In this document: one piece after another, positions 5,198 to 59,089 of the stretch
Numbering within the stretch: the stretch's first letter is position 1
Layout of the letters: every line of letters starts with the position of its first letter
Assembly (NCBI GenBank): GCA_045541795.1
Contig: JAZQJV010000003.1
Span: 1,623 to 65,622 of the forward strand
From: Patescibacteria group bacterium
GTDB lineage: Bacteria; Patescibacteriota; Microgenomatia; UBA1400; PJMF01
DNA: 64,000 nt
Direction: 5' to 3'
Position numbers and translations under genes: made by a program
Notes under the pieces: generated by a model
What the model saw: only the letters and a program-made list of their open reading frames with translations
The model's database searches: none
Told to the model about the DNA's origin: nothing

Positions 5198-5228
5198 CTA
5201 GATAAGGAGTGCGGGCAGAATTAAATGT

Positions 5229-24770: not shown

Positions 24771-24832
24771 GTTTACAAAAGTAGGTAAAAATAGTAAGTT
24801 TTGTAAATAGAAATGGAATTTGGTTACAAAAA
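24771..24832 (+). repeat. 62-bp direct repeat, copy 1 (GTTTACAAAAGTAGGTAAAAATAGTAAGTTTTGTAAATAGAAATGGAATTTGGTTACAAAAA)
   Basis: Exact second copy at 26106..26167. The pair flanks the AAA ATPase gene and its promoter. Confidence 0.7.
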
Positions 24833-24833
24833 C

Positions 24834-24862
24834 TTGACATTTTCCCGCGGCCGTGTTATAAT
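24834..24862 (+). promoter_or_regulatory. promoter TTGACA-17-TATAAT for the AAA ATPase gene (leaderless, 7 nt to ATG)
   Basis: cTTGACAttttcccgcggccgtgtTATAATtacatatATG. Confidence 0.55.
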
Positions 24863-24869
24863 TACATAT

Positions 24870-28899: not shown

Positions 28900-29640
28900 G
28901 TGAGTGAGGTGGCAAAAAAACCCGGGGCAAACTGGCCGCTTTACTTACTCATGAGTGCAGGGCTGGGGTTGATATTGCTAGCCGGCGTACCTTTTGCCCG
29001 GGGATGGTGGCAACAAATACTGGATTCACAGGCGGAAAACATCGTCTACCCGCTAGAGATGAATGAGTTTTGGGCGCGAGTGGAAGCCAACCCCAAAATC
29101 ATCGCGGACATTGACGCCGTGACGGCGAAAGCGCCCACAATCGTGGACGAGATCGACTACGGCAACATCGAAAACTGGTTTAGTGACGGGAAATTCCACG
29201 CGCAAAAGCAGACGTCGCAAAGCTATACGCTTGACATAGAAAAGCTCGGTATAAAAAATGCCCTCGTAAAGGTGGGCGGTACAAATATTGATCACAATTT
29301 GGTACAATTTAATACCGACCGGACGATCGGCGATTATGGAGCGCCGGTGATTTTTGGTCACAGCATGCTGCGGCAGTTTTATAATCCCAAGGAAACCAAT
29401 AAAGAGCGATACAAAGGTATTTTCTCCACTATCATGACACTGGAGACGGGAGATGAGATCAAAATCACCATTGCTGGCGTGACGTACACTTTCTTGGTGA
29501 CGGAAAAAAAGGAAGTCAAGCCTGACGATGATTATATCATGAGTCAGGATGTAAGCAAAAAACAAATTAAATTGGTGACGTGCACGCCCGAAGGCACGAG
29601 GCTGCGGCGCGGAGTAATCACGGCAGAGCTAAAAAGTTGA
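28900..29640 (+). CDS. sortase-family transpeptidase
   Basis: His in APVIFGHSML, Cys in KLVTCTPEG (TLxTC-like), Arg in RLRRGV, and an N-terminal membrane anchor. Confidence 0.7.
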   Translation: MSEVAKKPGANWPLYLLMSAGLGLILLAGVPFARGWWQQILDSQAENIVYPLEMNEFWARVEANPKIIADIDAVTAKAPTIVDEIDYGNIENWFSDGKFHAQKQTSQSYTLDIEKLGIKNALVKVGGTNIDHNLVQFNTDRTIGDYGAPVIFGHSMLRQFYNPKETNKERYKGIFSTIMTLETGDEIKITIAGVTYTFLVTEKKEVKPDDDYIMSQDVSKKQIKLVTCTPEGTRLRRGVITAELKS

Positions 29641-29641
29641 G

Positions 29642-30013
29642 ATGAAAATACTAGGCATTGATTACGGGACAAAGAGAGTGGGTGTGGCGGTGAGTTATGC
29701 CAGTTTGGCCCAGCCGCTAGAGGTGCTAGAAAATGACGAACACTTAATTGGGCGGCTGGGCCAACTGATGGCCGAACACCGCGTGCAAGAAATTGTAGTG
29801 GGGATCAGTGAAAATGAAATGGCAGCCAAAACGCAGGAATTTGTGCGCCGCTTGCGCGCGGTCACTCCCCTACCCATCACTTTTATCGACGAGACGCTTA
29901 CCAGCCACCAGGTACACGAATGGCTGCGGGATGCGCCCGCGCGCAAGCGGCGCGGGCCGATCGATCATTTTGCGGCAGCGTTGATTTTGGAAAATTATCT
30001 GCAGGATAAATGA
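29642..30013 (+). CDS. ruvX: Holliday junction resolvase-like YqgF/RuvX
   Basis: MKILGIDYGTKRVGVAVS and overall 123-aa YqgF architecture. Confidence 0.85.
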   Translation: MKILGIDYGTKRVGVAVSYASLAQPLEVLENDEHLIGRLGQLMAEHRVQEIVVGISENEMAAKTQEFVRRLRAVTPLPITFIDETLTSHQVHEWLRDAPARKRRGPIDHFAAALILENYLQDK

Positions 30014-30078
30014 GGGGCAATACCGTAGCACATCCACAGCATACACATAAAGTTGCCGCCAAAGGTAGGCGGAAAGCC

Positions 30079-30112
30079 AAAAAAACCGGGCGATAAACCC
30101 GGTTTCTGTTTC
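30079..30112. terminator. bidirectional intrinsic terminator (A-tract, CCGGG-cgataaa-CCCGG, T-tract)
   Basis: aaaaaaaCCGGGcgataaaCCCGGtttctgttt lies between the convergent ruvX and giant gene. Confidence 0.5.
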
Positions 30113-30131
30113 ATCTTCACTCTCCCCTCCC

Positions 30132-33100
30132 CTATGGATTGAGGTCAGGATTGTCGGCGTACATGTAGGCAGAGCTATTGGCGCGGTGGAGCGTGTTGTA
30201 GATCGGGAAGTAGAAGCTGATATTGTAATTCTTGGTGACGCTCATACCGGAGTCATTATCGCGGATAGTAACCGTGTGCGGACCAGGGAAGGTGTAATTG
30301 GTCAGCGTGAGACCAAATTCTTCCACCGGGATGGCAAAGGTAAAGCCAGTCTGCTCGCCAGCAATGGTGCTCACATCGATCGTCTTGACGATGGAGGTGC
30401 CGTTGATCGCCAAGGTAATGGTGAAGTTCTTGGGCACGCTCATGGCGGGAATATAGCCTTCGATGAGAATGTCATCATTGGTGGGCACCAGGCGCACATT
30501 CCAGGTGAGCTCACCGTCGGCCACATTGTCGATCAGATCAATGTAGCTCGGCATACTGGCGTAGTAGTAAGTATCAGTGAAGGTACTCACGTGACCCACA
30601 TTATCCACCGCACAGACATAGAGAGTATGCTGTCCCTCGTCGATGGTGATACCGATATTGGAACCACTGGCGATGGTGGTGCCGCCGGTGCAACTGTCAC
30701 CCAGGCTGTTTTCATTCCAGGCGTAAGCAATGCGAGCGAGACCCGAGAGAGTATCCACCGCCGTGACATCAATATTTTGACGGGTGGAAGTCCAGCCGGG
30801 GACTGCCGGGGTGACTTCGAGCGTGGGCGCGGCGAGGTCAATGCGATTGGCCGGTGAGGTACAAGTGGTAGACACGCCCACATTATTGGTGATGGTCACC
30901 TGGCAGGTGGCGCCGTGGACAGCCACAGCGGTACAAGAGTAGCTATCCTGAGCCATGCCAGACACACCACCGTCAGAATCCGTGAGGACGAAAAGCTGTT
31001 GGTTGGAGACACTCTTCCAGTCTACCGGATCGGCCGGAGTCCAAGTGCCGCAGACAGGAGCCTCAAAGTTGGCGTAAACCGTCTGAGTACTGGTGACCGT
31101 AGTGATGTTGGCGACATTATCTGCCACGGAGACACGGTAACGGTAGCAGTGACCATTGGTCATATTGGCCGTGGCGGTGAGCGTACCGGCTGAGTACGTG
31201 AAGGCAGTATCCTCGTAGGCTGCTCCGGTGAGATCACAGCTAGAAGTGTTACCCGTGGTGACGGTAGTACCCATGATCCGCTCTACTCTCCAGGTGGAGT
31301 CATTGATGCCAGACTGCGTATCGCTGACACCTGTAAGCTGGAGGTTGATAGCACCGTTATTGGTGACGTACTGATCCGTGTAGCCGAGTGAGAAACTGGG
31401 CGCCGTCTGATCGTTGATCACATTGATCCGGCAGCTGGCGGTAGTACCGTTACCATAAGTGTAGACGATGGTGCCAGAGCCAGTGGATTCGGCTGCTTCC
31501 GCCCAGGCGTAGGTCTTGGTGTAAGTACCGGCGCCGCCTTCATGAGTGCCAGTGCCGGCTGGAGTAAGGCTCCAGTTGGCGTTAAATGGCGGATAGTAGA
31601 CACTAGTGATGCCGGAGTCTGGCTCAGCAAGCTGAGTGGTCAATTGGAAGGAACCAGTGCGACCCGTGCTAGCAGCGTAATCATAGCTGGAGTAATAGAG
31701 CGTATCGCTGCCCGCTTGATGCTGATAGTCAGTATTGGTCACTGGCGTGAGGGTACAAGTCAGCGCAGGTGTGGCCGGATCCACCTTATTTTCTGGTGAC
31801 TGACAGACCTTGGTATTGCCAGCGCGATCAGTCAGGGTGACGGAGCAAGTGCTGCCGGTGGTAGCCGCCGTAGTACAAGTGGTCACCAGTCCAGAGCTTA
31901 AGCCCGAGCCAGCATCGCTGGAACCCACGAGGGTGAAAGGCTGACCGCCGCTCGTGCGCCACGGATTCACCTCGGCCGGATCCCAGCTACCGCAGGTGGG
32001 CGCTTCGAGGTCAATGGCGATCTGGCAAGTATCGCCGCTGGCCGTAGACGTGGTAGTAGCTTGATTGCCGACCTTATCCGTGCTGACCAGCAGATAACGA
32101 TAACAGGTATTGGTAGCCGCGCCAGATACAGCGTGATTGGTGACGCCACCCGTAGCGACAATGCTACAGCTATCACTAGTGTCTGCGCAGTCCGCAGTGA
32201 GGTCTGCCGGGTAAGAGCAAGCGCCGCCAGCGAGAGTGCCGATTTGCTGGACGAGATAGCTGGAGGCAGTATCCAGGCCAGAGCCAGAGTACGTGATGCC
32301 GCTGACAGTAGACTCCGGATCGGCGCCATAATCCACCTTGATGGAGAAGGACGAGGAGTTTTGGGCGCCGGCCGGGCAAGTGGTGATGCGGCCAGCTGGA
32401 GCCTGATCGTCATAGACGAGGGTGAAGTCAGTGCTCGCCGCGCGCAGACCATTATTGGCTAGGGCAAGACGATCGGCATAGACAGTCTTATTGGAATCGT
32501 TGAGGTAGTAGACGCGGTAGTAGGTATTGATGTCTGCTCCCGGGATACCGGCCACAGTGGTGGCATCATTGAGGTTTTGGAAGGCAGTGGACGAGATAGT
32601 GCCGCTGGAGCCGCCAGTAGCCGTGGCCAGCACGGTGACATTACTACCACTGGTGGGTGCGTAGTAAGCCGTGGTGGCACCATCATAGTAGAAGTTTTCA
32701 CTGGTGGAGGTGATGGAGTCGATGCTGATTTCAGGCACGTTGGTATCCACGATGAAGGAATTGGTGGACGTGATGACGGCCGTATTGGAGACATTATCTG
32801 TCACGAGCACGCGGTAACGATAGCACTTGCCGTCTACCAAGGTGTCATTGGCCACGATTGCATCCGCAGTGAGGTAGGCGTCATCATAGGTATTGATGGT
32901 GGCATAGTCAGAGCAACCTTCAGCTTCGCTGCACTCGTAATTGCAGGTGTAGTCAGCGACACTGACATCTCCCGTGCCGTCACCAGTGTAAGTAGCCACG
33001 CCGGTAGCACGTTGGATGGTCCAACTCTTGATGCCGGAACCAGAATCCGTGACGCTAGACTTACCCAGTCCCAGCGCGAGCTCACGAGAGCCGGCGCGAT

Positions 33101-36100
33101 TGGTCACTCCAGTGGCATAAGTGAGGCTAGCCGGGGCGATAGGATTGTCTGGATCAGCAATAGCGCTGACCTGACAAGAGCTGGTATTATTGTTACCAAA
33201 GGTCATAGTGACGCTGGAGTTGGAGTCATCACGGCGGGTAGTGGTATCCCAAGTATAGTTGCGCTCATACACGCGGGGATTACCAGTGGCCGAGCGGCTA
33301 GACTCAGCGGCAGTATTGGCAGCCAAAGCCGGGAAGTTTACCTTGGCGATGCCAGAGGAAGGTACGCTGGCGGCCGTGGTACGGACGGTGAAATTACCAG
33401 CCGAGAGTGACGGATTGTAGTAAATAGTGCTGTCATCTGGCAGGTAGCTAGTACCGGAGACCGGAGACACTTGACAAGTGAGAGCGGCCACTTCGTCGTC
33501 GATATTATTGGTGGGCGAAGTACAGGTGGCAGTATTGCCGGCCTGATCATAGATCGTGACGTCGCAAGTCTCACCGTCGATAGCATTGACTGTGGAGCAA
33601 GTGAAGCTGCTCGCGCCGATGCCAGAACCAGTATCCGTAGAACCGTAAAGGGTGAAGGTCTGATTGGCAGCAGTATTCTTCCAAGGTACTTGAGCAGGAT
33701 CCCAAGTGGTACCGCAGACAGGAGCGGTGGTATCCACCTTGATCTCATTGGGGCTGGCGATCGTAGCGATGTTACCCACATTATCGCTCACACGTACCTG
33801 GAAGCGGTAACACTTACCACTCTCAAGGGTGTCAGTAGTGGCGATAGCGGTCACCTTACCGTCAGTAGTGGTAAGACCAGCGCTGACTTCGCTGTAAGCG
33901 CCGTAAGCAGAGCAAGTGCCGCCGCTCAAGGTCCCTTCGCTGCGCCAGACAGTCCAGGAGTCTTCATCAATACCAGAGCCGCTATCAGTGGGACGAGTGA
34001 GGCCGAGGTTGACGGTGTGAGTCGAGGCTTGGTTGATGTAGGCGGTAGCGTAGCCCAGAGAGCCGTCTACTGGAGCGGTGTGATCAGGAATGATAGCGAC
34101 GTTGCACTGACCGCTAGTGCCGTTGCCGTAGGCAAACTTCACGCTAGCACGCTCACTACCGGCAGCCCCTTGTACCCAGGAGTAAGCCTGAGTGTAGTGA
34201 CCGCTGGCTGAGGTCTGACTACCAGCCGTCCAGCCTTCTGCCAACACTGGGAACTGCTTGGAGGTAATGTGTGAGGACGGTTCATCAAGCTTGACACCCA
34301 GGAGGAAGGAACCATTGATGCTGGCACCAGAGCTGGCTTCGCCGTTATTGTAGTAGAGGGTGGGCAGCGTGCCGACAGTAGTCGCATACTGATACTGTGG
34401 CGCTGTGCCTTCAGTGATGGTACAGGTGAGTTCTGGCGTATCGCCGTCCACCTTATTGACAGGTGAGGTACACACGCTCATGCGGCCGGCATGGTCATAG
34501 ATGGAGACAGTACAGGTATCACCAGTCTTATCACCAGTGGCACACTCTCCCCCACTCACCTTGATGCCGGAGCCGGAATCTGAGGAACCCGCGAGGATGA
34601 AGGTCTGACCGCCAGAAGTATTCCAGGGGTTGACTTCGGCTGGAGTCCAGCTGCCGCAGGTAGGATTATTCAGGTCTACCTTTACCGTGCAGGTGGCGGA
34701 AGTTTCATTGCGGACGTGATCGCGAGCGACGAGACGGTAAATGTAGCAAGCTTCGCTGGCGTCAGTTTCTTGGTAAGTGGTATCACCCACGCTACCCACA
34801 GGAGCAAAGACGGCGCTTGCGGTATCGCAGGTACCATTGGCCAGGAGTGGCACGACCGCACGCTCGATATGTGAGCCGTTTTCGCTGGTATTATCATTAC
34901 CAGAGAGACGATCAGTACCATAGCTACCAGCGATGGTGAAGTTATCCGTGGCTTGCCAGCCAGAAGGACAGGCGGTGAAGGCAACGTCTTGCGGTCCTTC
35001 GCTGTCATAGATCACGTCAAAGTACGCTTCATTGGTATCGTCAGTGGTATTGACCGCTTGTAGGATCATATCAGTCATGGTACTGGTAAGACCCGTGAAC
35101 TCATAGAAGTGATCCTGGTAAGTGGGGGTGGTGGGGGTGGGATAGGTGTAACGGGTGGAGGAAGTGCGGTCAAAGTTTTCATAAAGCACCTGAGTGATGC
35201 CAGCACCGACCGCCGTGGAATTGGTGCGAGCGGTGGTGGTTACCTGAGCGCCGCGAGCGTTACTATTGGGACCGTAGTAGATGGTAGACGCCTCATCAAA
35301 GTAGTAGATGTCGTCTGCAGTCGGCGTCACACTGGTGATGTAGATTTCTGGTAGATTGGAGTTGACCATGATCACGTTTTCCGCCGTGAAGATGGAGACA
35401 TTATCCACGCGGTCAGTCGCGACGACGCGGTAGCGGTAGCAGCTCATATCTTGCAGGTCATCATTGACACTCATGATACCAGAGCCATAGGAGGTGTAGT
35501 CGTTGGCGCCAAAGGAGACCATATCGCTGCTGCCCCAATCTTGCCAGTCAGTACAGACATTATCCGTGCCGAGTGTACCCTTGATCCGTTGGATTTCGAG
35601 TGTGGCGAGGCCAGCACCGTCATCAGCAAAGTCAGCGGCCGTGATACCAAGCTTGACGTCGCGCGCACCCGGGATACCGTACTTGATGTTCTTGTACTTG
35701 GGAGCGCTACCGGCCGGAGCAGTACTATCGGCGATCACCGAGACAGAGCAGGTATTAGAGTTGTAGTTGCCATAAGTAACCCAGACGAGTTCGTTTTCGC
35801 TGGAGCGAGTACTAGTGGATGACCAGGCATAGTCACGAGTGAAGACGGTAGGCGTGGTGACACTGGCGGACTGGGTAGCGTAGTGCTCATTGCTGCCGGC
35901 CAGAGCTGGGAAGTAAGCGTAAGCGATGCCAGAGCGAGGTTGCTCGTCTGCGGTGGCGACGACGCGGAAAGTACCGCTACCCTTAGCCGGATTGTAATAG
36001 AGCAAGTTCTTATCGCTGATCAGATACTGAGTACCGGTACCAGAGACCAGACCGCAGGTGACGTCGGGATTGGCGAGGTCGATGCGATTGGCAGGAGACT

Positions 36101-39100
36101 GACAGCGGGCAGTGTTGCCAGCAACGTCAGCGATGTCTACCCAGCAGGTGGCCGAGGATGAAGCCTCAGTGGTACAGCTATAATAGCTGGCAGACATGGT
36201 AGTGAGGGCGTCGATGGAGTCAAGCAGCTCAAAGGTCTGGCCGACGGCGGTATTCTTCCAGGGAGAAGGATCCGGTTGCCAGGTGGCGCCGCAATTGGGA
36301 GCAGTCAAGTCGATCTTGACTTCACCACTACTGGTGACGCTGGCGGTATTGCCTACCATATCTGAGACGCGTAGTTGGAACTTGTAGCAGCGGCCAGAGG
36401 CGTAATCCGCATCTTGATCAATAGCGATGCTAATGCCGGTCACCTGATCATTGACAGTGGTATATTGTAGCTCGCTGGCGGGCACAGCCGTAAAGCTGGA
36501 ATAATCAGAGCAGGTATCGCCAGCGAGGGTGCCGACACTCTTGTAGACAGACCATGAGGTCTCATCAATGCCGGAAGCGAGGTCGCGACCGCGAGTGAGC
36601 TTCAAGTCAATCGTCTTGGCGGTATCTTGGCCGACGTAGACAGTGCCGTAATCCAGGGATGAGCCTACAGGGCTGGCGGAGTCGGCCAGCACAGCAACTG
36701 TACACTGAGCCGCTTGACCGTTGCCATAGGTAATGTCTACGGTGGTGTTGGCATTGCCAGTGGCACCGGCGGTCGTCCAGGTGTAGTCTTGGTAAATATC
36801 CAGACCTGACTCGGTATAATTGCTGCTCGTCCAGCCACCGGCGATAGCCGAGAAGGTGAGCGGAGTGCGATAGCCAGAGGACGGAGACTGAGACATGCTT
36901 GCCGTCAAGCGCCAGGTGCCCGAGGCAGCGGAGCTAGGATTGAAGTATAAGGTAGGCTTGCTGGCGCGCATGGTGGGATACCAGTAGTCACCAGCGATGT
37001 CTGCAGGCAAGGAACAAGTGAGGTCGTAGATATTGGTGTCCACCTTATTGATCGGTGAGCGGCAGACGCTAGTGCGGCCGGCGTTATCAGAAATAGTGAT
37101 AGTACAGGTATCACCGTTGGCCACACCCGTGGTACACTCGCCACCAGCTACATTGATACCGGAGGTGGTGTCAGTGGAGTCAGAAAGGACAAACCGTTGA
37201 CCAACGTTGGCTCTGTTCCAGACAGTCACTTCTTCTGGTTCCCAAGTGCCGCAGACAGGATCAGTGAGATCTACCTTCACTTCGCACACAGCTGAGCGGG
37301 TGAGATTACCCACGTTATCCGCAGCCACAAGCCGGTAACGATAGCAGCCGTCTGTAGCACCAGCAACTGAGTAGTCAGTGGCTGCGTAGTCACTTACCCG
37401 GGTGTAATCACCAGAGTAGGAGCAGGCACCATTGGTGAAAGTACCAGATTGGCCTTCAATGAAGCTGGAAGTAAGATCAAGACCAGAGAGAGCGTCACTA
37501 CCATAGCTGCCCTTGATGGCGAAGGAATTGGCCGTGAGGTATTCACTCGTAGTGGAAGGACAAGTGGTAAAGGCGACATCACTCGGGCCGGCACCGTCAT
37601 AGGTGACGTTGAAATGAGTGTTGGCAGAGCTAACCGGCTCAGAATTGGTGTACGCAGTGATAGCCCGATCCGCATAGGAAGTGGTACTGCCCACTGGGAG
37701 CGTATAGGTGCGCATATAAGGACTGTCTGTATCAGAACTGGTACCTTCGCCCGTAAGATCCTGGAAGGCGACATTGGAGATGGCGTAACCTTCACCAGCG
37801 CTGGCGTCGGCCGTAAGGATCAAGGCCGTGGACACAGTGGGCTTGGCATAGTAGATCGTATCGACGTTGTCAAAGTAGACACCGCTCGGCTGTGAGACAT
37901 TGGAGATGGCGATACTGGGTCGGCCAGAGTCCACGATGTAGTAGTTGGCGGTGGAAATGACGCCCACATTACCGAGCTTATCGGTGACGAGCACGCGGTA
38001 ACGATAACAGCTGGAGTCAGTGATATTCATGTTTACCGTGAGCGTGCCGTCCGGCAGATCAGCGTCAGCGATCGCATCGGAGATATTGGTGAAGTGTGTA
38101 TCGGCCGCGTCAGTGTAGTCACCAGCAAACGGACAGGAGTCGTTTTCGCCGAGGGCGACGCGCTCATACTGGAAGATCCAGTTATTGATACCCACGCCAG
38201 CATCTGTGATTTGCGACTTGGCCGTACCGAGGCTGACCTCAATATTGCTGCCGGCCTTATTGGTGACTTGAGTGAGGTAGCCAAGATCTGGTCCGGTGGG
38301 AGCCTGACTATCAGCTACGGCCGAGACCTGACACGTGAGGACGACGTCATTGTTGAAGTTCATCGTGACCGGTTGGTTGTAGAGCTGAGTATTGTTGGTA
38401 GTCGTCCAGTTGTAGGTCTTGGTAAATGAGCTTTGGCCGGCAGTGGTAGGAGTGACGGTCTCGGCCGCAGTATCCGCCAGAGCTGGGAACTCGACACTAT
38501 CGACACCGGATTCGGAACTAGAGACGTTGGCCGCATTGAGGTAGAAGTTACCTACACCTCGGCTGGGATTGTAGTAGACGGTGGAGTTACCCACGAGCAA
38601 GGCATTGGCGCCGCTATCCAGGGTAATGGTACAAGCCAGGGTCGGTTCGCCGTTATCCACACGATTGATGGGTGAGGTACAAGTGGTGGTATTGCCGGCG
38701 CGATCAGAGATCGTGACGTCACAGGTGGCGCCGTAGACGGCCGCGGCGGTACAGACTTCATAGCCGGCGACTGATTCCACACCAGAGTAGGTATCATAGC
38801 TGCCAGCTGCGGCATGATCAGCACCGTCATTATAATAGAGCTTGAAGACTTCTGGAGCAACATCCCAAGAGTCAGTGCCGGCAGCCGGATCCCAGTCTGT
38901 ACCACAGACAGGAGCGGTGGTATCCACCTTGATTTCGGCCGCGTCAGCGATGTTGGCTGGGAAGACAGCTTGATTGCCTACGAGGTCACTCACGCGTAAC
39001 TCGTACTTGTAGCAGCGACCAGAAGCGAGGATGTCTGTAGCGGTGAGATTGGTGAGGACACCAGCAGTGAAGGTCTGAGTAGGAGTGATCTGAGTGGGAG

Positions 39101-42100
39101 TAGGATTGTCACCGTAGGAACAGACACCATCAGCAAGCGTACCTGCGTAGCGCCACACTTGCCAGCTAGACTCATCAATGCCGGAGTCATTGGTGCCATC
39201 GTCAGTAGCTCTAGTGAGCTGGAGATCAATAGTTTGGCTGTCACCCTTCTTGAGATAGCGGCCAGTGTAGCCGAGCGAGCCACCTTGAGGAGCTTGGTTA
39301 TCGGCGATGAGGGCGATCTGGCAAGAGTTACTCAAATCATTACCGTAGGTGAAGGTGGTAGTGGCAGGGTTGCGGCTGCCAGCGCCAGTAGACCAGGTGT
39401 AGGTACGATGGTAGACACCATTGCTGCCAGTATACGATGCTTGTGACCAGGCACTATCTGAGCCTGCCAGATCAGCATAGCCGATACCGGTGATGTTACC
39501 AGCACTGTCGTGACGGATACCGGAGATTGGTTCGTCCACGTGGATTTCCCAGTCAAAACTACTGCCGGAGGCGAAGCTATTAGCGTTGTAATAGAGTGTT
39601 GGCTTTTCGTCTATGGTGGTGGCGTACTGATAGCCGGGATTGGTACCCTCATTGATGATACAAGTAAGGCTAGGATTCTCCTCGTCCACGTGATTTGCGG
39701 GAGAGGTGCAGGTGGCAGTCTTGCCGGCGCGATCGGTGACAGTGACGGTACAAGTGGCGCCGTCTACCGCATCAGCAGTACAAGTGAAGCCGGGAGTGGT
39801 GCCACCATCTGGCAGTGTGCCGTAAGAAGCAGCGTCATCCACACCTGAGTAGGCGTCAGCATAAGTCTTGAGTCTAAAGGCTTGCTGGGCGGCAGTACTC
39901 TTGTAAGGATATATTTCTACCGGTTCCCAGTCAGCGGGATCATTGCTACAGGTGGGCGCAGTGCGGTCGATAGCGACTTCACACACGCTGGAGCGGGTGA
40001 CATTGCCGACATGATCCTCAGATACCAGGCGGTAGGCATAACAGGCGCCATCAGAGGTTGTTTGCGTGTAGCGATCTACACTGCCGCCAGTGCCGTCAAT
40101 CTTGGTGTAGGCGGCGTCAGCCGAACTGACGGTATTGCCGGCGTCGTAGTAGCAGCCGCCGTCAGCATTATTGAGGTGGCCCACGGCGCGCTCGATATAA
40201 GTGAGACTATCGTCCACGGTAGAGAGCGCATCTGTGCCGTAGCTACCGATGACTGTGAAGTCGGCGACATCTAAGTAACTGCCAGCGCTACCGGGACAGG
40301 TGGTAAAGGCTACGCCAGTAGGACCATCGCCGTCAAAGGTGAGATTAAATGAGGTGGGCGCGGTGACGCTAGAGTTGGTGACAGCATTAATACTCACACC
40401 AGCGACTGAGGAGCCATTTGTCGGGAGCGCGTAGGTGTAGTAGTAGTGATTAGAGCCAGCATTGGTGCCAACATTGTAGGCAGTCTTTGCGAGGTTTTGG
40501 AAGTTGACATAGTTAATACCGGCGACATTATCAATCGCTTCCACGGTGACGTCGATGTTGGCGGCAGACGGATTGCGGCCGTAGTAGATGGTGCTGACAC
40601 TATCCCAGTAGACTTGGTCGACATCAGATACTGAGTAAAGATTGTTGCTCGGCACTGAGGTGGAGACCTTGATACTATTGCTCGTGGTGAAGATGGACTG
40701 ATTGCCCACCTGGTCGGTGACCACAAAGCGGTACTGATAGCAGGTGCCGTCTGCGAGTGTATCCGTCACACTAATGTTGCCGGTCATGCTGGAGAAGTCA
40801 CGAACCCAATTGCCGGCGCCAGAATAATCCTGAGCCGGAGTGGTCCAAGCTGAGGAGCTGTAGTCACAGTTGCCGCTGCTCAAGGTGGCAGTGCGGCGCT
40901 GGATGGTGAAGGTCTTGATACCAGCCTTGTCATCACTAAATTGACCGACATTCACACCGAGGTTGACTGATTGGCTACCAGTGGTGCTGGTGTAGCTATC
41001 GGCATAACCCGGAGCAACACCAGTAGGTGCGGTGTGATCTTCATAGACCGTCACCAAGCACTGAGCGGAAGGAGTTTCGGCGACAGGATCATTGATGTTC
41101 CAATAGATCTTATTAGCAGCGTCTACTTCTGATCCAGTGGTAGAGGTATTCCAGTTGTATGTGCGGCCAAAGATGCGTGGTGCTGAGGGGCTAAGCGGTG
41201 AGGGACGATCCACGATGTAGGCGGCATTGGAGACGAGCTGTGGATAACTGATACGGTCGACACCGCCGGCGGGCATGCCGCTGATCGTATTGGTGAGGAC
41301 AAATGAACCGCCGCCAGTGGTAAATTCGGTGCTGCTGCCAGAAGTGCTGGCGACATAAGGATTGTAGTAGAGCACTGAGTCGCTGGAGCGGTAGTAGTTG
41401 TAGTAGGTGACGCCGCTAATGGCGCTAGTGTAACTGTCACCCGTGAGACTGCCGATAGTACAGCTGAGGGTGTAGCTGTTGGCGTCTACGGTATTGAGTG
41501 GAGAGCGACAAACAGTGGTATTACCGGCGTTATCAGCGATCGTGAGGTCAGCGTAGCCATCGCCGCCGCCAGTGGTGGTCGGTATCGTAGTGGACTGACT
41601 GCTGGTAGCCGTGGTGATGCCAGAGCCGCCTTGATCAGTGTTGCTGGCGAGCGTAGCGTTGTAAGCATAACCTGAATTCCATGGTAAGGAGATGGCGCCC
41701 GATTGAGTGTGACTGGTGATGCTAGTATTATTACTAGCGTAAGTCTGACTCCAGCTATTGAGACTCACCGTCCAGGTACCACAGACCGGATCAGTGGTGT
41801 CTACTTTGATGAAATTGGCTGACGCTACTGAGCCTTCATTACCGACGTTATCCGAGACACGGATTTGATATTGGTAACATTTACCAGTGGTCTGGGGGAC
41901 GATGACGCTGACACCATTAATTTGGCCGGCAGAGTTGGTCCAGCTCACGCGCGAGGTATCTGTCACTTGAGTATAGGCGCCCATAGCGGTACAGTTGCCG
42001 TCACTGAGTGTGCCGACACTTTCATAGAGAGCCCAGCTGTTTTCGTTTATACCGCTGCGATCATCGGTGGCAGTGGAGCGATTGAGTGACAAATTGACAG

Positions 42101-43856
42101 TATAGCTGGAGTCTTGATTGAGGTAGGCGGTGGTATAGCCAAGTGAGAAACCAGTGGGCGCGGCAGCGTCAGCGTAGAATGTGAGATCAGAGCAGACCGC
42201 ATTTTGGCCGCTGCCGCTGGTAAGGGTGACTTGTGGATTAGCATCTGTACTGGCACCGCTTGTCCAGCTGTAGGCCGAAGTGAAGAGCTGATCGTCGCTG
42301 GTGGCGGAGATTACTGATGGCGTATTTGTCCAGACATTAGCACTGCCGTCTACGTCGGCAAAACTAGCTTGCGCAAGAGATGAAGGTAAGCTGGTGACCG
42401 AGCTTGCCAGCTGTGCTTTGACATCGACGATACCAGCTGTACCGGACTTATAGTAGCCGGTGGTACCGGCGGCAGACGGCAGGTAGACATTACTGCCGGT
42501 ATTAGTGTTGGCCGAGAGATAGCAGACAGGCGTGGGCGCGGTGGTATCTACACGGTTAAATGGCGAGCGACACTCGATGGAGTTGCCAGCATTATCATAG
42601 ATGGTGACGGTACAGGACGAACCGTGAGCACCAGCAATATTGCTGGAGCAGGCGTAGGAATTACTAGCGAGACCCGACTCACCGACATCATATGTAGAGT
42701 CGAGGGTCATCGTGGCGGGATAACTGACGCCGAGATTCCATGGAAGTACGCTGACGCCGCTAGTGCTAATGGTATCGCTGGAGGCGTTGGATTTGTAAGC
42801 CACGGTGTTGACCGTCCACGGACTCTGACTGGCAGTGCCGCAATTGGGATTTGTCCAGTCGATGATGAGTTGATTATTGAAGGAAGCGTAGCCAGGTGTA
42901 TTTGAGTACAAATTGTTATCAACAATTTTTATTTCTACATAACCAGCAAGACTGTCAGTGCCAGATTCTGGTTGCACGCTGTAAATACCTTCATCCAGGC
43001 CGGCGGCCAACACTTCCGCATACGTGAAATTTAGGCTCCAAGCAGCCGCTGTGCCATTACTAAGGTTACTGAGGGTCTTGGTGATGGTGTGATTATTTTT
43101 GTCGGTGAGGGTGACGGTGATAGTAAGGGTCTGATTGGTGTCGCCGTCGGTATAGGTACCGGCAAACGTAGCACCGCTAGTTTTGTTTAAAATCAAATCA
43201 CTGCTGTTGACGGTGATAGTCGGATCAGTATTACAGTCTGTGGTGAGTGTGTAAGGATTGTCTACAGTACCCAGTCCGTCACCGCCGTTGACCACGCATA
43301 AATTAGAACATTCATCGTCGACACAGTTGAGTTCGATGACGGGATAAGCATCAAGATCGCTGGTGGCGGCCACGGCGGTGCTCGCATCGCCGCTAGAATA
43401 GTTGATCTGATAGAGATTATTGCCGTTGGCAGTTCCCGTCCACGCATTGGTAGTATTGGGTAAGTAGTTATTGCCATAGCTTGTAGTGCCAGAATTGATA
43501 CCGGTCTTATAACTTTCTTTACCAGCATTCCATTCTGACTGAGTGACGAGGCGCATGTAACTGGGATAAGTGCTACAGTTGTCTAGTTTTTTGACCCAGT
43601 TGGCGTAGTCAGAACCGAGGGCGGTCTGCAAATAACCGGTGGAAGTACTATTATTAAGTGATTGCTGGAGCGTAGAACCGCACCACGTAGAACTTGCGGA
43701 AGAGTTGTATTGGACTGCTTGTGCACGTCTCGTGCCGGAAACACTGAGCGTCAGGATTGCCAAAGCGATTACCAAACGTGTAAATAGTGATTCTGCTAGT
43801 CTGCCAATTTTTGCTTTCATACTTTTTAGTTTCTGCGTATCTTTTAATACGTGCAA
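30132..43856 (-). CDS. giant (4574 aa) S/T-rich cell-surface adhesin-like protein with signal anchor and ~10 tandem modules (Cys-rich ~75-aa domain plus Ig-like regions)
   Basis: The N-terminus KIGRLAESLFTRLVIALAILTLSVSG is a signal anchor. The motif K(V/I)D(T/L)TAP(V/T)CG(T/S)W...SGI...C(T/S)T...G(A/D)TC(T/D)VTI(S/Y)D.AGN...C.SP.N.VD...P.L(T/A)C recurs at least 10 times. Confidence 0.7.
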   Translation of the reverse strand: MHVLKDTQKLKSMKAKIGRLAESLFTRLVIALAILTLSVSGTRRAQAVQYNSSASSTWCGSTLQQSLNNSTSTGYLQTALGSDYANWVKKLDNCSTYPSYMRLVTQSEWNAGKESYKTGINSGTTSYGNNYLPNTTNAWTGTANGNNLYQINYSSGDASTAVAATSDLDAYPVIELNCVDDECSNLCVVNGGDGLGTVDNPYTLTTDCNTDPTITVNSSDLILNKTSGATFAGTYTDGDTNQTLTITVTLTDKNNHTITKTLSNLSNGTAAAWSLNFTYAEVLAAGLDEGIYSVQPESGTDSLAGYVEIKIVDNNLYSNTPGYASFNNQLIIDWTNPNCGTASQSPWTVNTVAYKSNASSDTISTSGVSVLPWNLGVSYPATMTLDSTYDVGESGLASNSYACSSNIAGAHGSSCTVTIYDNAGNSIECRSPFNRVDTTAPTPVCYLSANTNTGSNVYLPSAAGTTGYYKSGTAGIVDVKAQLASSVTSLPSSLAQASFADVDGSANVWTNTPSVISATSDDQLFTSAYSWTSGASTDANPQVTLTSGSGQNAVCSDLTFYADAAAPTGFSLGYTTAYLNQDSSYTVNLSLNRSTATDDRSGINENSWALYESVGTLSDGNCTAMGAYTQVTDTSRVSWTNSAGQINGVSVIVPQTTGKCYQYQIRVSDNVGNEGSVASANFIKVDTTDPVCGTWTVSLNSWSQTYASNNTSITSHTQSGAISLPWNSGYAYNATLASNTDQGGSGITTATSSQSTTIPTTTGGGDGYADLTIADNAGNTTVCRSPLNTVDANSYTLSCTIGSLTGDSYTSAISGVTYYNYYRSSDSVLYYNPYVASTSGSSTEFTTGGGSFVLTNTISGMPAGGVDRISYPQLVSNAAYIVDRPSPLSPSAPRIFGRTYNWNTSTTGSEVDAANKIYWNINDPVAETPSAQCLVTVYEDHTAPTGVAPGYADSYTSTTGSQSVNLGVNVGQFSDDKAGIKTFTIQRRTATLSSGNCDYSSSAWTTPAQDYSGAGNWVRDFSSMTGNISVTDTLADGTCYQYRFVVTDQVGNQSIFTTSNSIKVSTSVPSNNLYSVSDVDQVYWDSVSTIYYGRNPSAANIDVTVEAIDNVAGINYVNFQNLAKTAYNVGTNAGSNHYYYTYALPTNGSSVAGVSINAVTNSSVTAPTSFNLTFDGDGPTGVAFTTCPGSAGSYLDVADFTVIGSYGTDALSTVDDSLTYIERAVGHLNNADGGCYYDAGNTVSSADAAYTKIDGTGGSVDRYTQTTSDGACYAYRLVSEDHVGNVTRSSVCEVAIDRTAPTCSNDPADWEPVEIYPYKSTAAQQAFRLKTYADAYSGVDDAASYGTLPDGGTTPGFTCTADAVDGATCTVTVTDRAGKTATCTSPANHVDEENPSLTCIINEGTNPGYQYATTIDEKPTLYYNANSFASGSSFDWEIHVDEPISGIRHDSAGNITGIGYADLAGSDSAWSQASYTGSNGVYHRTYTWSTGAGSRNPATTTFTYGNDLSNSCQIALIADNQAPQGGSLGYTGRYLKKGDSQTIDLQLTRATDDGTNDSGIDESSWQVWRYAGTLADGVCSYGDNPTPTQITPTQTFTAGVLTNLTATDILASGRCYKYELRVSDLVGNQAVFPANIADAAEIKVDTTAPVCGTDWDPAAGTDSWDVAPEVFKLYYNDGADHAAAGSYDTYSGVESVAGYEVCTAAAVYGATCDVTISDRAGNTTTCTSPINRVDNGEPTLACTITLDSGANALLVGNSTVYYNPSRGVGNFYLNAANVSSSESGVDSVEFPALADTAAETVTPTTAGQSSFTKTYNWTTTNNTQLYNQPVTMNFNNDVVLTCQVSAVADSQAPTGPDLGYLTQVTNKAGSNIEVSLGTAKSQITDAGVGINNWIFQYERVALGENDSCPFAGDYTDAADTHFTNISDAIADADLPDGTLTVNMNITDSSCYRYRVLVTDKLGNVGVISTANYYIVDSGRPSIAISNVSQPSGVYFDNVDTIYYAKPTVSTALILTADASAGEGYAISNVAFQDLTGEGTSSDTDSPYMRTYTLPVGSTTSYADRAITAYTNSEPVSSANTHFNVTYDGAGPSDVAFTTCPSTTSEYLTANSFAIKGSYGSDALSGLDLTSSFIEGQSGTFTNGACSYSGDYTRVSDYAATDYSVAGATDGCYRYRLVAADNVGNLTRSAVCEVKVDLTDPVCGTWEPEEVTVWNRANVGQRFVLSDSTDTTSGINVAGGECTTGVANGDTCTITISDNAGRTSVCRSPINKVDTNIYDLTCSLPADIAGDYWYPTMRASKPTLYFNPSSAASGTWRLTASMSQSPSSGYRTPLTFSAIAGGWTSSNYTESGLDIYQDYTWTTAGATGNANTTVDITYGNGQAAQCTVAVLADSASPVGSSLDYGTVYVGQDTAKTIDLKLTRGRDLASGIDETSWSVYKSVGTLAGDTCSDYSSFTAVPASELQYTTVNDQVTGISIAIDQDADYASGRCYKFQLRVSDMVGNTASVTSSGEVKIDLTAPNCGATWQPDPSPWKNTAVGQTFELLDSIDALTTMSASYYSCTTEASSSATCWVDIADVAGNTARCQSPANRIDLANPDVTCGLVSGTGTQYLISDKNLLYYNPAKGSGTFRVVATADEQPRSGIAYAYFPALAGSNEHYATQSASVTTPTVFTRDYAWSSTSTRSSENELVWVTYGNYNSNTCSVSVIADSTAPAGSAPKYKNIKYGIPGARDVKLGITAADFADDGAGLATLEIQRIKGTLGTDNVCTDWQDWGSSDMVSFGANDYTSYGSGIMSVNDDLQDMSCYRYRVVATDRVDNVSIFTAENVIMVNSNLPEIYITSVTPTADDIYYFDEASTIYYGPNSNARGAQVTTTARTNSTAVGAGITQVLYENFDRTSSTRYTYPTPTTPTYQDHFYEFTGLTSTMTDMILQAVNTTDDTNEAYFDVIYDSEGPQDVAFTACPSGWQATDNFTIAGSYGTDRLSGNDNTSENGSHIERAVVPLLANGTCDTASAVFAPVGSVGDTTYQETDASEACYIYRLVARDHVRNETSATCTVKVDLNNPTCGSWTPAEVNPWNTSGGQTFILAGSSDSGSGIKVSGGECATGDKTGDTCTVSIYDHAGRMSVCTSPVNKVDGDTPELTCTITEGTAPQYQYATTVGTLPTLYYNNGEASSGASINGSFLLGVKLDEPSSHITSKQFPVLAEGWTAGSQTSASGHYTQAYSWVQGAAGSERASVKFAYGNGTSGQCNVAIIPDHTAPVDGSLGYATAYINQASTHTVNLGLTRPTDSGSGIDEDSWTVWRSEGTLSGGTCSAYGAYSEVSAGLTTTDGKVTAIATTDTLESGKCYRFQVRVSDNVGNIATIASPNEIKVDTTAPVCGTTWDPAQVPWKNTAANQTFTLYGSTDTGSGIGASSFTCSTVNAIDGETCDVTIYDQAGNTATCTSPTNNIDDEVAALTCQVSPVSGTSYLPDDSTIYYNPSLSAGNFTVRTTAASVPSSGIAKVNFPALAANTAAESSRSATGNPRVYERNYTWDTTTRRDDSNSSVTMTFGNNNTSSCQVSAIADPDNPIAPASLTYATGVTNRAGSRELALGLGKSSVTDSGSGIKSWTIQRATGVATYTGDGTGDVSVADYTCNYECSEAEGCSDYATINTYDDAYLTADAIVANDTLVDGKCYRYRVLVTDNVSNTAVITSTNSFIVDTNVPEISIDSITSTSENFYYDGATTAYYAPTSGSNVTVLATATGGSSGTISSTAFQNLNDATTVAGIPGADINTYYRVYYLNDSNKTVYADRLALANNGLRAASTDFTLVYDDQAPAGRITTCPAGAQNSSSFSIKVDYGADPESTVSGITYSGSGLDTASSYLVQQIGTLAGGACSYPADLTADCADTSDSCSIVATGGVTNHAVSGAATNTCYRYLLVSTDKVGNQATTTSTASGDTCQIAIDLEAPTCGSWDPAEVNPWRTSGGQPFTLVGSSDAGSGLSSGLVTTCTTAATTGSTCSVTLTDRAGNTKVCQSPENKVDPATPALTCTLTPVTNTDYQHQAGSDTLYYSSYDYAASTGRTGSFQLTTQLAEPDSGITSVYYPPFNANWSLTPAGTGTHEGGAGTYTKTYAWAEAAESTGSGTIVYTYGNGTTASCRINVINDQTAPSFSLGYTDQYVTNNGAINLQLTGVSDTQSGINDSTWRVERIMGTTVTTGNTSSCDLTGAAYEDTAFTYSAGTLTATANMTNGHCYRYRVSVADNVANITTVTSTQTVYANFEAPVCGTWTPADPVDWKSVSNQQLFVLTDSDGGVSGMAQDSYSCTAVAVHGATCQVTITNNVGVSTTCTSPANRIDLAAPTLEVTPAVPGWTSTRQNIDVTAVDTLSGLARIAYAWNENSLGDSCTGGTTIASGSNIGITIDEGQHTLYVCAVDNVGHVSTFTDTYYYASMPSYIDLIDNVADGELTWNVRLVPTNDDILIEGYIPAMSVPKNFTITLAINGTSIVKTIDVSTIAGEQTGFTFAIPVEEFGLTLTNYTFPGPHTVTIRDNDSGMSVTKNYNISFYFPIYNTLHRANSSAYMYADNPDLNP

Positions 43857-44059
43857 TCATTTTAACACGTCAGCGTCCATTTTGCAACACCATTTTGGGG
43901 CAATTTCCGCCTGGTAGGCAAACTGGCCTACAAGTAAATTGTAAGTTACAATGTGAGTGACATTTTAAGTTTTTTTTGCTACCGTACTACTTTGTCCAAA
44001 TCATTCTTCACTAGTGCACACCGTTTCCGAATACAATTTCTTGTGGTATAATCGGGCGT

Positions 44060-45421
44060 ATGACAAATTTCTGCACTAAATTGCAACTGCGCGCGAAAAT
44101 TTTATGGCTTCGTTTGGATATTTTCGCGCGCACTCACTACTATTCATTTTGGTTACTGCTTTTTATTTTCTTGCGGCTTACAGTAATTTTTTTACCTGGC
44201 CCCGACTACAGTGATGTCACTCATTACTATGAGCGCTATGCCAATATTTGGCATTACGGCAATCCGCCGTATACGCACTGGGTTTTTGAATACGGGCCGT
44301 TGGCCGCACTCGTGATTTATCTGCCGCTTTTGGCGGATTTAATGGGGGCGGGAGCCTACTACGTCAATTATAAATTACTCAGTTTTCTTTTTGAGTTGGG
44401 GATGTTTATGGGCCTCACCTGGTATAATGACAAGCGTAAAAATGCCGAGACATGGCCGCTTTTGCTCTATTTGATGCTGACGACGTGCGCCAAAAATTGG
44501 TTGTATGAAGGTATCGACATGATTTTTTGCAGTTTGGCCGTGGGCGGGATTTTAGTTTTAGCGAGCACACATAAATGGAAGAAGATTTTTAGTTGGATTT
44601 TGTTGTGGGCGTCGACAGCGGTGAAATTTTTGACGCTACCGCTGATCGCGCCATTTTACTTAATTACCAGAGGAAAATGGCGTGAAAGTTTACTCACTTT
44701 TACCCTTACTTTTTTACTCATTTGGGGCGGGCCACTAGCCTATTACCGCTCAAGTTTGAGTGTGCCTTTCATTTATAATAGTGGCCGCACGATCAAATAC
44801 AACACCATCACTCATTTAATACTGCGTACGCTCAACAATATCACGCACACAGAAGTGCAGTCGCAGGAAGCGCCGGATTATTCTTTCCAAGGACCGGCCA
44901 GTAGCATGGCAGCAAAAGTTTTAACTCTGCTCTACCCGATCAGTTTACTGGTGATTTTGCTGGCGCAGCTGCTGATAATCTATCACAGCGAGACAGGAAA
45001 ATGGCTGGATAAACCGGGTAAAATGTGGAGCTGGCTGTGGCGAGCGAGCCATCTGAGTGACGCTGATAAAGTTCAGCTGGCAGCATGGTGTTATTTTAGT
45101 TATTTTATGGTGAGCTTTTTTACGGCCAAGATTTTTTCTAATCCTTTTTGTCTGTGGATGCTGCCACTGATCGTCATTTTGGATTGGCGGGAAGAAAAAT
45201 GTCGGCGGCAATTTGTTTTTTGGCTGAGCATGTGGGCGATTTTGGAGCTGACGCCATTTTTGACGGCGAGCTTTTGGCGGTTGCAAAGTTTTGCTTGGTT
45301 CCGCTTTGAGCTTTTTGAAGTCAGCTACGGCTGGGTAAAGTGGCTGTGTGTAGCGGCAACGGCGTGGTGTGGGATGCGAGAAATGATAAGCTGTACAAAT
45401 ATAGTTACTAAGGTGGAATAA
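44060..45421 (+). CDS. polytopic membrane protein, GT-C-fold glycosyl/mannosyltransferase-like (DUF2029-like) candidate
   Basis: 453 aa with more than 10 TM helices. It is divergent from the giant surface-protein gene. The ATG is about 7 nt after TGTGGTATAAT (leaderless). Confidence 0.45.
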   Translation: MTNFCTKLQLRAKILWLRLDIFARTHYYSFWLLLFIFLRLTVIFLPGPDYSDVTHYYERYANIWHYGNPPYTHWVFEYGPLAALVIYLPLLADLMGAGAYYVNYKLLSFLFELGMFMGLTWYNDKRKNAETWPLLLYLMLTTCAKNWLYEGIDMIFCSLAVGGILVLASTHKWKKIFSWILLWASTAVKFLTLPLIAPFYLITRGKWRESLLTFTLTFLLIWGGPLAYYRSSLSVPFIYNSGRTIKYNTITHLILRTLNNITHTEVQSQEAPDYSFQGPASSMAAKVLTLLYPISLLVILLAQLLIIYHSETGKWLDKPGKMWSWLWRASHLSDADKVQLAAWCYFSYFMVSFFTAKIFSNPFCLWMLPLIVILDWREEKCRRQFVFWLSMWAILELTPFLTASFWRLQSFAWFRFELFEVSYGWVKWLCVAATAWCGMREMISCTNIVTKVE

Positions 45422-45428
45422 TCTTTTT

Positions 45429-45475
45429 CCTTCCCTATATAGGGAAGGGGGACCAACTCGTGAGAGTTGGTGGAA
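45429..45475. terminator. two consecutive hairpins (CCTTCCCTATATAGGGAAGG and ACCAACTC-gtga-GAGTTGGT)
   Basis: Perfect palindromes between the GT-C-like gene stop and the DUF559 gene start. Confidence 0.35.
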
Positions 45476-45483
45476 AGGTACCA

Positions 45484-45906
45484 ATGATTGTTTACGACTA
45501 TACTCGAAATAAATCAAGCCTTCTCTATCACAGGAAAGCACTACGTCATCATTCAACTGTATGCGAATGTTTATTGTGGAGAAAATTAAAAGGAAGACAA
45601 TTACATGGTTACAAATTTCGAAGGCAGTACAGTTTAGAAAATTGCATATTTGACTTTTACTGTCCACAATTAAAACTGGCTATTGAACTTGATGGAGCTC
45701 CGCACTTTTTTAAGGAAAAATACATTCAGGATCGCAAACGCGATGCTTATTTTCTCAGTAATTATAATATAAGTACTCTCAGGTATGAAAATTGGCAAAT
45801 ATTAAGCGAAATAGACATCGTCATTAATGATATCTACAAACACATTCAGTTGATTGAATGTACCTCTCCACCGTCCGCAAGCGGACTGTCCCCCTCTCCT
45901 ATGTAG
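45484..45906 (+). CDS. DUF559 (Vsr-like endonuclease fold) domain protein
   Basis: CECLLWRKLKGRQLHGYKFRRQY...IFDFYCPQLKLAIELDGAPHF...DRKRDAYFLSNYNISTLRY matches the DUF559 pattern. The C-terminal residues are encoded by a hairpin region. Confidence 0.55.
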   Translation: MIVYDYTRNKSSLLYHRKALRHHSTVCECLLWRKLKGRQLHGYKFRRQYSLENCIFDFYCPQLKLAIELDGAPHFFKEKYIQDRKRDAYFLSNYNISTLRYENWQILSEIDIVINDIYKHIQLIECTSPPSASGLSPSPM

Positions 45907-45939
45907 GAGAGGATAGGATTACGTTTTATCGTTTTTCTG

Positions 45940-45966
45940 CTGGCAAAAACCCCGCCAAGGCGGGGT
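45940..45966. terminator. intrinsic terminator (A-tract, CCCCGCC-aa-GGCGGGG, T-rich) serving the minus-strand gene 45987..46619
   Basis: ggcaaaaaCCCCGCCaaGGCGGGGtaaaacattt. Confidence 0.4.
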
Positions 45967-45986
45967 AAAACATTTCGTCTTACAAA

Positions 45987-51261: not shown

Positions 51262-51269
51262 GAGGGCGA

Positions 51270-51298
51270 TTATAGCACGACTGAGGCTTGTTGTCAAG
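51270..51298 (-). promoter_or_regulatory. promoter TTGACA-17-TATAAT, 7 nt upstream of the ATPase ATG
   Basis: Minus strand TTGACAacaagcctcagtcgtgcTATAATcgccctcATG. Confidence 0.5.
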
Positions 51299-59068: not shown

Positions 59069-59089
59069 AAGGGATATTTTAGCAAAAAA

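Follow-up and report, generated by a model that had tools for sequence, protein, structure and literature searches.

Very large surface proteins built as rods of tandem beta-sandwich domains are known from several bacteria. Salmonella SiiE (PDB 2YN3/2YN5), the Bap/LapA-type adhesins and a Mobiluncus adhesin with 51 immunoglobulin (Ig) domains (PMC10619420) all run to thousands of residues, are acidic and consist of dozens of tandem domains of ~80-125 amino acids (aa). In the Candidate Phyla Radiation (CPR), genomes of Peregrinibacteria encode several large Cys-rich extracellular proteins with signal peptides, on average ~1,650 aa long, which show weak similarity to Myxococcus Cys-rich repeats, co-occur with sortase, type IV pili and a heavy investment in the envelope, and have been proposed to serve attachment (PMC4736985). 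Moreover, epibiotic growth of a cultivated patescibacterium requires adhesins (PMC10633639). Here we analyzed a stretch of 64,000 nucleotides (nt; hereafter the window) from a Patescibacteria group bacterium (contig JAZQJV010000003.1, positions 1,623 to 65,622), which carries a gene for a giant repetitive protein and, divergent from it, a gene for a 453-aa polytopic membrane protein. An original prediction, made from the sequence alone, had suggested that the membrane protein resembles a glycosyltransferase and would suit O-glycosylation of the giant. Our results point, with a probability of about 60%, to two separate things: a giant Ig-array surface fibre and an enzyme of the glycosyltransferase C (GT-C) fold from a Patescibacteria family, whose adjacency reflects lineage-specific synteny.

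Self-BLAST and an alignment (A2) resolved the giant into five colinear super-repeats of ~880 aa, the fifth truncated, which have 31-38% mutual identity and BLAST E-values of 1e-125 to 1e-177, far above chance. The layout of a super-repeat is CysA-X-Y-CysB-X-Y-Z-Y, that is, eight beta-sandwich domains of four types, and the domains are bounded by D..AP linkers. Counting about two domains in the N-terminal head and two at the C-terminus, the protein has ~40 domains. Mapping of the domain boundaries showed that this 8-domain super-repeat, and not a single module, is the higher-order unit of the protein. An orthologue in a related genome (L001, a 4597-aa giant) aligns colinearly over 3,100 aa with 56% identity, and its head is 61-69% identical. 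Identity between paralogous super-repeats is only ~33%, so the repeats are old and individually maintained rather than recently amplified. The other large open reading frames (ORFs) of the window (1817, 1181, 719 and 714 aa) have no domains in common with the giant.

We modelled the CysA-X-Y part of super-repeat 3 (aa 2196-2519) with AlphaFold2, using a 22-sequence alignment. Results showed an all-beta structure of three beta-sandwiches (pLDDT 91.6, pTM 0.80), for which Foldseek against the PDB returned titin Ig domains, protocadherin EC arrays, KIT, NCAM, the Deinococcus HPI and Bacillus anthracis Sap surface-layer (S-layer) proteins and the PrgB Ig domains. At the sequence level, the profile of the repeat unit matches the BIg domains of SiiE (2yn3, E = 2e-6), and domain Y gives a weak Big_3_2 match (E = 0.006). 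The repeat units are thus predicted to be Ig-like, consistent with an adhesin or a fibre, and the adhesin-like character proposed originally is borne out by the model, with no match to a known non-adhesin fold. The regions between the Cys modules, described at first as Ig-like and Ser/Thr (S/T)-rich, are indeed Ig-like, but they are ordinary beta-sandwich domains without S/T tracts: the giant contains 24.7% S+T overall, the S/T share stays at or below 40% in every 50-aa window, and there are only 9 runs of 4 or more S/T residues. There is also no excess of N-x-S/T sequons in the protein (79 observed against 71 +/- 7 expected). It contains 102 Cys and is strongly acidic, with 441 D+E against 190 K+R.

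The giant gene was called mechanically as a 4574-codon ORF on the minus strand (30132..43856) with a TTG start at 43856. Its true start is probably the ATG at 43820, because a promoter-like -10 element overlaps the TTG and because the database protein P0013, which is identical to the giant, starts at Met13. The ORF first reported is therefore present, but its product probably has 4,562 aa, as P0013 does, and not 4574. A consensus scan found 1 promoter-like match 5' of the gene, against 1.1 expected by chance; of terminator-like hairpins there were 2, against 0.3 expected. The N-terminus had been read as a signal anchor. It looks rather like a Sec signal peptide with a predicted cleavage site between AQA and VQY, and it is probably cleaved, because the orthologues of L001 and of a second related genome, L005, keep both the AXA-V(Q/T)Y site and the sequence of the mature N-terminus, with conservation beginning exactly after the site. 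The G+C content is 54-56% in most of the giant gene (49% at its 5' end), ~43% in the GT-C gene and ~50% in the window background; this contrast around 30000-46000 could stem from the amino-acid composition or from a separate origin.

Compared with the SiiE, Bap/LapA-type and Mobiluncus adhesins, the giant differs in several ways. Its export would depend on a Sec signal peptide and not on type I secretion, and no RTX region or C-terminal type I secretion signal was recognized by eye; an LPXTG motif, as in the original prediction, is absent. Its four domain types form 8-domain super-repeats instead of one repeated domain, it has disulfide-bearing 4-Cys domains, and its head and tail match no known family. 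In searches of Pfam and PDB sequences nothing significant was found for either end; the head gave only weak Pfam matches and no PDB sequence match, and the C-terminal module a weak match to the C-terminal domain of the S-layer protein SbsC (E = 0.14). The likeness to the Cys-rich proteins of Peregrinibacteria lies in the CPR host, the large size, the Cys content and the signal peptide, and is a likeness by description only; those proteins differ in their average length of ~1,650 aa and in their Myxococcus-like repeats.

The Cys module occurs in ten copies with the pattern P.CG.W...SGI...C.T...TC.V.I.D.AGN...C.SP.N.VD. The count of at least ten copies given originally thus stands, but the domain is of ~78 aa with four conserved Cys, not of ~75 aa with six; a fifth Cys near it belongs to the following domain X. 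Nine copies are intact and one, the second (aa 692), has lost two of its four Cys. No Pfam or NCBIfam model matches the module above its curated cutoff. Nevertheless, it does not seem to be a new fold. In many homologues the slot of the Cys domain is taken by an Ig domain of the OmpL47/CHB_HEX_C-like type, and hhalign relates the two with a probability of 91.6% (E = 8e-7). The OmpL47-type (NF047446) and CHB_HEX_C_1 (PF13290) families have the signature SG[IV]...D.AGN...[IV]D...P in common with the Cys domain, which differs from them in being shorter, in lacking the central 'Y..DGS.P' segment and in its four conserved Cys. In addition, the C-terminal domain of the giant (aa 4360-4427) matches NF047446 at E = 2e-4, with 21.7 bits against a curated cutoff of 40. 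The module is therefore best described, from these comparisons, as a compact and presumably disulfide-stabilized Cys-bearing derivative of an OmpL47/CHB_HEX_C-type Ig domain, and a distinct six-Cys fold is not supported. The hyalin repeat (HYR, PF02494), considered because of the pattern D.AGN...C...V.D..P..C, gave no match at E <= 10 with either the whole giant or the isolated Cys domain.

The same module, often in tandem, was found in 20 other proteins among the best 150 hits, and its consensus is strikingly conserved (P.CGTWSP..SPWK.SG.Q.FTLSGSTD.GGSGI...GG.CTTG...G.TC.V.ISD.AGNT..CTSP.N.VD). Carriers such as P0092, P0047, P0121, P0153 and P0127 are otherwise different proteins in which the module remains highly conserved; the carriers include a protein from a metagenome-assembled genome of Woesearchaeota (DPANN) and another in which the module is joined to a FISUMP lectin-like domain. 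Three of the Cys-bearing relatives (P0047, P0121 and P0153) have type IV prepilin N-termini (QAFTLIE or GFTLLE), two of the prepilin-type carriers being ~3,600 aa long and the third 837 aa. The 4-Cys unit is reused on other surface proteins, giant prepilin-type proteins among them, and it may be shared by ultra-small episymbionts. The giant itself was also considered as a type IV prepilin and rejected: its N-terminus, KIG RLAES, lacks the G|F-T-L-I-E motif and puts the Glu at +4, and there is no NCBIfam pilin match.

We also looked for proteins sharing domains with the giant. A word-indexed search with one super-repeat returned 2 proteins and missed the giant itself, probably owing to low-complexity composition, and an exhaustive HMMER profile search was used instead. 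At E < 1e-3 this search recovered 1117 proteins, and the stricter limit of E < 1e-30 leaves 141. Their database names go no further than 'hypothetical' or 'Large repetitive protein', and some carry additional Big_3_3, Big_7, Big_13, PKD or fn3 domains. The giant and four much shorter proteins (P0018, P0163, P0023 and P0031, 835-1255 aa) have the tail motif FYFP[IV]YN..H..N...Y.[YF]A..(D/E)N..NP in common, and P0023 (1181 aa) also has the head, where about 98 of the first ~340 residues are identical. As shorter relatives keep the tail, and one of them also the head, the family appears to combine conserved ends with a stalk of variable length. The conserved tail (30135-30560 in the window, aa ~4431-4574) could be an anchoring or assembly element. 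Our search of the published literature found no description of this family.

Taken together, the giant would most likely serve an ultra-small Patescibacteria cell, probably an episymbiont, as a long surface fibre or adhesin. It would be exported by the Sec pathway as a strongly acidic, disulfide-containing rod of ~40 tandem Ig-like domains. The repeats would form its stalk, ~150 nm long in an extended state, and anchoring and binding would fall to the terminal modules.

We then considered the 453-aa protein. Homologues were found as 13 protein clusters and at 13 genome loci, and no named one lies outside Patescibacteria. A search of Pfam and NCBIfam gave no match at E <= 0.1, and a profile search gave no PDB sequence match. 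A second profile search, over 5.8 billion proteins, did not link the family to known ones. The family therefore appears to be small, uncatalogued and found only in Patescibacteria. In spite of this, the AlphaFold2 model, built from 10 sequences (pLDDT 80, pTM 0.84), has about 12 long transmembrane (TM) helices, in agreement with the more than 10 expected, and the top six Foldseek matches in the PDB, all with probability 1.00, are GT-C enzymes or their relatives: ArnT, glycosylphosphatidylinositol (GPI) mannosyltransferase I, ALG6, ALG3 and PIG-U (two entries), the next match falling to ~0.1. TM-scores are 0.47-0.62 to GPI mannosyltransferase I, ALG6 and ALG3, the best being 0.56/0.62 for GPI mannosyltransferase I, and 0.31-0.35 to ArnT. 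The alternative of a transporter was checked in the same search, where all confident matches are GT-C, and the protein is predicted to have a GT-C glycosyltransferase fold rather than a transporter fold.

GT-C-fold enzymes act on the extracytoplasmic face, and their catalytic acid lies in the first external loop after TM1. In the 453-aa family all 10 sequences compared have Asp52, which belongs to the motif P..YSDVTHYYERYAN directly after TM1 (aa 27-44), or in pattern form P..YSDVTHYYERYA, at the start of the first external loop, and in the model a short juxtamembrane helix follows this start. The positively charged N-terminus suggests that the Asp52 loop lies outside the cell. The protein therefore resembles GPI mannosyltransferase I (9wno), ALG6 (6snh), ALG3 (9s6r) and ArnT (5f15) in its polytopic fold of ~12 helices and in an invariant acidic residue that opens the first external loop, but differs from all of them in having no detectable sequence similarity. 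The resemblance to DUF2029 and protein O-mannosyltransferase (PMT) enzymes noted originally thus holds for the GT-C fold, but the protein is not a sequence member of DUF2029/GT87 or of PMT/PMT_2 (GT39/GT83). Indeed, hhalign of the family profile (A1) against 35 PMT_2-like neighbours of its homologues gave a probability of 2.4%, and the family was not picked up when a jackhmmer search was started from a PMT_2 neighbour. The enzyme would transfer a sugar from a polyprenyl-phosphate donor to its acceptor on the outer face of the membrane by means of Asp52, and its ancestral role would be in the assembly of envelope glycans.

Is this enzyme paired with the giant? The two genes are divergent, as originally reported, and 239 bp apart, and the arrangement is kept for homologues of 66% and 63% identity in L001 and in L005, where the N-terminus of a giant is found. 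In L001 the synteny with the window extends beyond the pair, a tRNA synthetase gene, an ORF of ~210 aa and an ORF of ~1150 aa following in both, while the downstream context differs in L005. More distant homologues have other neighbours. A homologue of 53% identity lies beside a GT4 gene and a phosphomannose isomerase gene, and no giant-type neighbour was detected at the loci of homologues with 32-53% identity (13 genome loci, P0005 and P0010); those with 32-39% identity comprise the 13 genome loci, from Woesebacteria, Beckwithbacteria, Paceibacterota and other Patescibacteria, and P0010. Most of these loci lie amid arrays of polytopic PMT_2-like and GT2 genes. Among 98 neighbours at 13 homologous loci we counted 27 PMT_2, 17 PMT, 15 GT2, 5 NTP_transferase and 2 Polysacc_synt, and GT2, NTP_transferase and flippase genes directly adjoin homologues of the 453-aa gene. 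In five loci (L006, L008, L010, L011 and L018) dense arrays of paralogous PMT_2-like GT-C genes surround the homologue, with up to about eight polytopic ORFs of 480-630 aa in 17 kb and GT2 genes interleaved. In the window a gene for a DUF559 endonuclease-like protein (45460-45906) directly follows the GT-C gene.

The alternative that survives best, which we still consider unlikely, is that in this clade the GT-C enzyme was co-opted to attach O-linked sugars to Ser/Thr of the giant while the latter leaves the Sec channel, a modification that would protect or tune the fibre. Actinobacterial PMT, which acts on secreted proteins, provides the analogy; the GT-C fold works on the right side of the membrane, and the candidate substrate is exported and contains 25% S+T. 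The short intergenic region and the divergent order are kept in three related genomes, in one of them (L005) with a different downstream context, and the enzyme lies outside any glycan cluster in the window, with no other glycosyltransferase gene near it among the ORFs scanned. A shorter member of the giant's family, the 887-aa P0163, is also divergent beside a PMT-family GT-C gene and a UbiA gene (L021, 2180-4309). The conserved pair and the isolated position of the enzyme count against our reading of the locus, and so do three further points. The GT-C assignment rests on moderate Foldseek E-values (1e-3 to 9e-2) and on a model from only 10 sequences; no GT-C family of CAZy or Pfam could be linked to the 453-aa protein by sequence; and the giant has no recognizable retention element, as its signal peptide is probably cleaved and an LPXTG motif, a C-terminal TM segment and a known wall-binding domain are all absent.

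The rating of a dedicated O-glycosylation remains low because the distant loci, most of them amid PMT_2 and GT2 genes, lack a giant, because shorter members of the giant's family have no neighbour from the 453-aa family, and because the giant has neither S/T-rich linker tracts nor a sequon excess. The best structural matches of the enzyme are moreover mannosyl- or glucosyltransferases of lipid-linked glycans or GPI, not protein O-mannosyltransferases. Conserved adjacency is itself weak evidence, since L001 is broadly syntenic with the window, and P0163 has a different context on another contig. The same 887-aa protein lies there beside a YibE_F gene (L020, 6755-7873), and these two contexts could mean that the gene is mobile or present in several copies, or that the assembly is faulty. 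We therefore find the O-glycosylation of the giant by the 453-aa protein unsupported and regard the two genes as neighbours through synteny specific to this lineage and not as a demonstrated enzyme-substrate pair, while a functional link remains conceivable because L005 keeps the pair despite its different downstream context.

A second alternative, which we judge less likely again, concerns the giant only and would make it a self-assembling building block of an S-layer or sheath, or a cell-to-cell spacer, instead of a ligand-specific adhesin. CPR cells have been reported to carry S-layers (PMC4736985), the giant is very acidic, and its gene looks stand-alone, with a terminator-like hairpin after it and a promoter-like match, no better than chance, before it. 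The HPI, Sap and SbsC matches point in the same direction, but the first two are no better than those to titin or cadherins. A rod of 4,562 aa and 40 domains is also atypical for S-layer protomers, and a variable stalk between conserved ends, together with prepilin-type relatives, suits fibres and adhesins better. Least probable, in our view, is the bolder proposal that an uncatalogued GT-C family was recruited as a dedicated fibre glycosyltransferase, that the 4-Cys module is a host-recognition cassette exchanged between CPR and DPANN and carried on Sec fibres and type IV pilus proteins, or both.

Two other claims of the original prediction concerned the surroundings of the giant gene, and both were found as described: a sortase gene (Pfam Sortase, E = 1e-14, with weak NCBIfam class matches) and a gene for a 714-aa protein with a single TM segment (26745-28889, plus strand). 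The 714-aa protein, encoded upstream of the sortase, has a cytoplasmic N-terminal part of ~330 aa, and its ectodomain weakly matches Baseplate_J (E = 5e-5); the protein is not a sortase substrate. The search for sorting signals in neighbouring proteins gave none in real ORFs: a pattern scan of all window ORFs for an LPXTG-like motif with a TM segment matched only short spurious frames. The C-terminus of the giant (...YMYADNPDLNP) likewise has no TM segment and no LPXTG-like motif with hydrophobic segment and basic tail. No sortase substrate is thus detectable in the window by its sequence pattern, and we see no link between the sortase and the giant. The coordinates of the features are collected in the table.

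Table. Features of the giant gene and its neighbours in the window (aa numbers are those of the 4574-codon ORF unless given as a length)
Feature	Position (nt)	Strand	Details
Giant surface-protein gene	30132..43820	-	4,562 aa from ATG at 43820; from ORF list and translation
Sigma-70-like promoter match	43859..43887	-	TTGCAA-17-TAAAAT with extended TG; consensus match upstream of the giant's ATG
Sec signal peptide (probable)	43716..43820	-	aa 13-47; MKAKIGRLAESLFTRLVIALAILTLSVSGTRRAQA, then VQY; read from sequence
N-terminal head	42861..43715	-	aa 48-332; about two domains
Super-repeat 1	39969..42860	-	aa 333-1296; CysA-X-Y-CysB-X-Y-Z-Y, CysB degenerate with two Cys; self-BLAST and alignment A2
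Super-repeat 2	37272..39968	-	aa 1297-2195; self-BLAST and alignment A2
Super-repeat 3	34677..37271	-	aa 2196-3060; self-BLAST and alignment A2; first three domains modelled (nt 36300-37271)
Super-repeat 4	32013..34676	-	aa 3061-3948; self-BLAST and alignment A2
Super-repeat 5, truncated	30828..32012	-	aa 3949-4343; CysA-X-Y-CysB
C-terminal module	30135..30827	-	aa 4344-4574; OmpL47-type-like Ig domain, then conserved tail ending FYFPIYNTLHRANSSAYMYADNPDLNP
Starts of the 4-Cys modules			aa 339, 692, 1303, 1651, 2202, 2522, 3067, 3381, 3955, 4269
Terminator-like hairpin, then T-run	30081..30107	-	25 nt past the giant's stop codon
453-aa polytopic membrane protein, predicted GT-C fold	44060..45421	+	Model and homologue search
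Sortase gene	28900..29640	+	Pfam match

Elsewhere in the window we observed an apparent diversity-generating retroelement (3036-7455). A reverse transcriptase gene (RVT_1, 3036-4202, minus strand) lies near a pair of repeats of 184 nt that are 91% identical (5229-5412 and 6226-6409). As the mismatches read in the alignment are all on adenines of the 5229-5412 copy (minus strand), this copy would be the template repeat and the other the variable repeat, which lies at the 3' end of a target ORF (6220-7455, minus strand) with a Fib_succ_major domain of the C-type-lectin fold. Three paralogous genes for AAA_14 + DUF4143 ATPases are found at 15-1154, 24813-26090 and 50065-51297. Large ORFs without a Pfam match are those of 1817 aa (10116-15569, plus strand), 1181 aa (55844-59389, minus strand) and 719 aa (15707-17866, minus strand); around the 1817-aa ORF the AT skew is strongly positive (0.2-0.33), and this ORF lacks an N-terminal signal.

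In conclusion, both the giant and the GT-C enzyme appear as new members of familiar kinds. Large Cys-rich CPR proteins and the need for adhesins in epibiotic growth were already known, and current concepts are unchanged unless an enzyme-substrate link is demonstrated; a dedicated pair, if true, would be a new bacterial protein-glycosylation system. Only a handful of adhesins have so far been connected with the way in which Patescibacteria recognize and hold their hosts. To this field the locus supplies a family of predicted fibres of variable length with conserved head and tail, a compact 4-Cys Ig module that is absent from Pfam and NCBIfam and recurs on surface and pilus-type proteins, and a small Patescibacteria-specific family of the GT-C fold without a sequence link to CAZy families. 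All three should be useful for annotating microbial dark matter and as targets for genetics in cultivable relatives.

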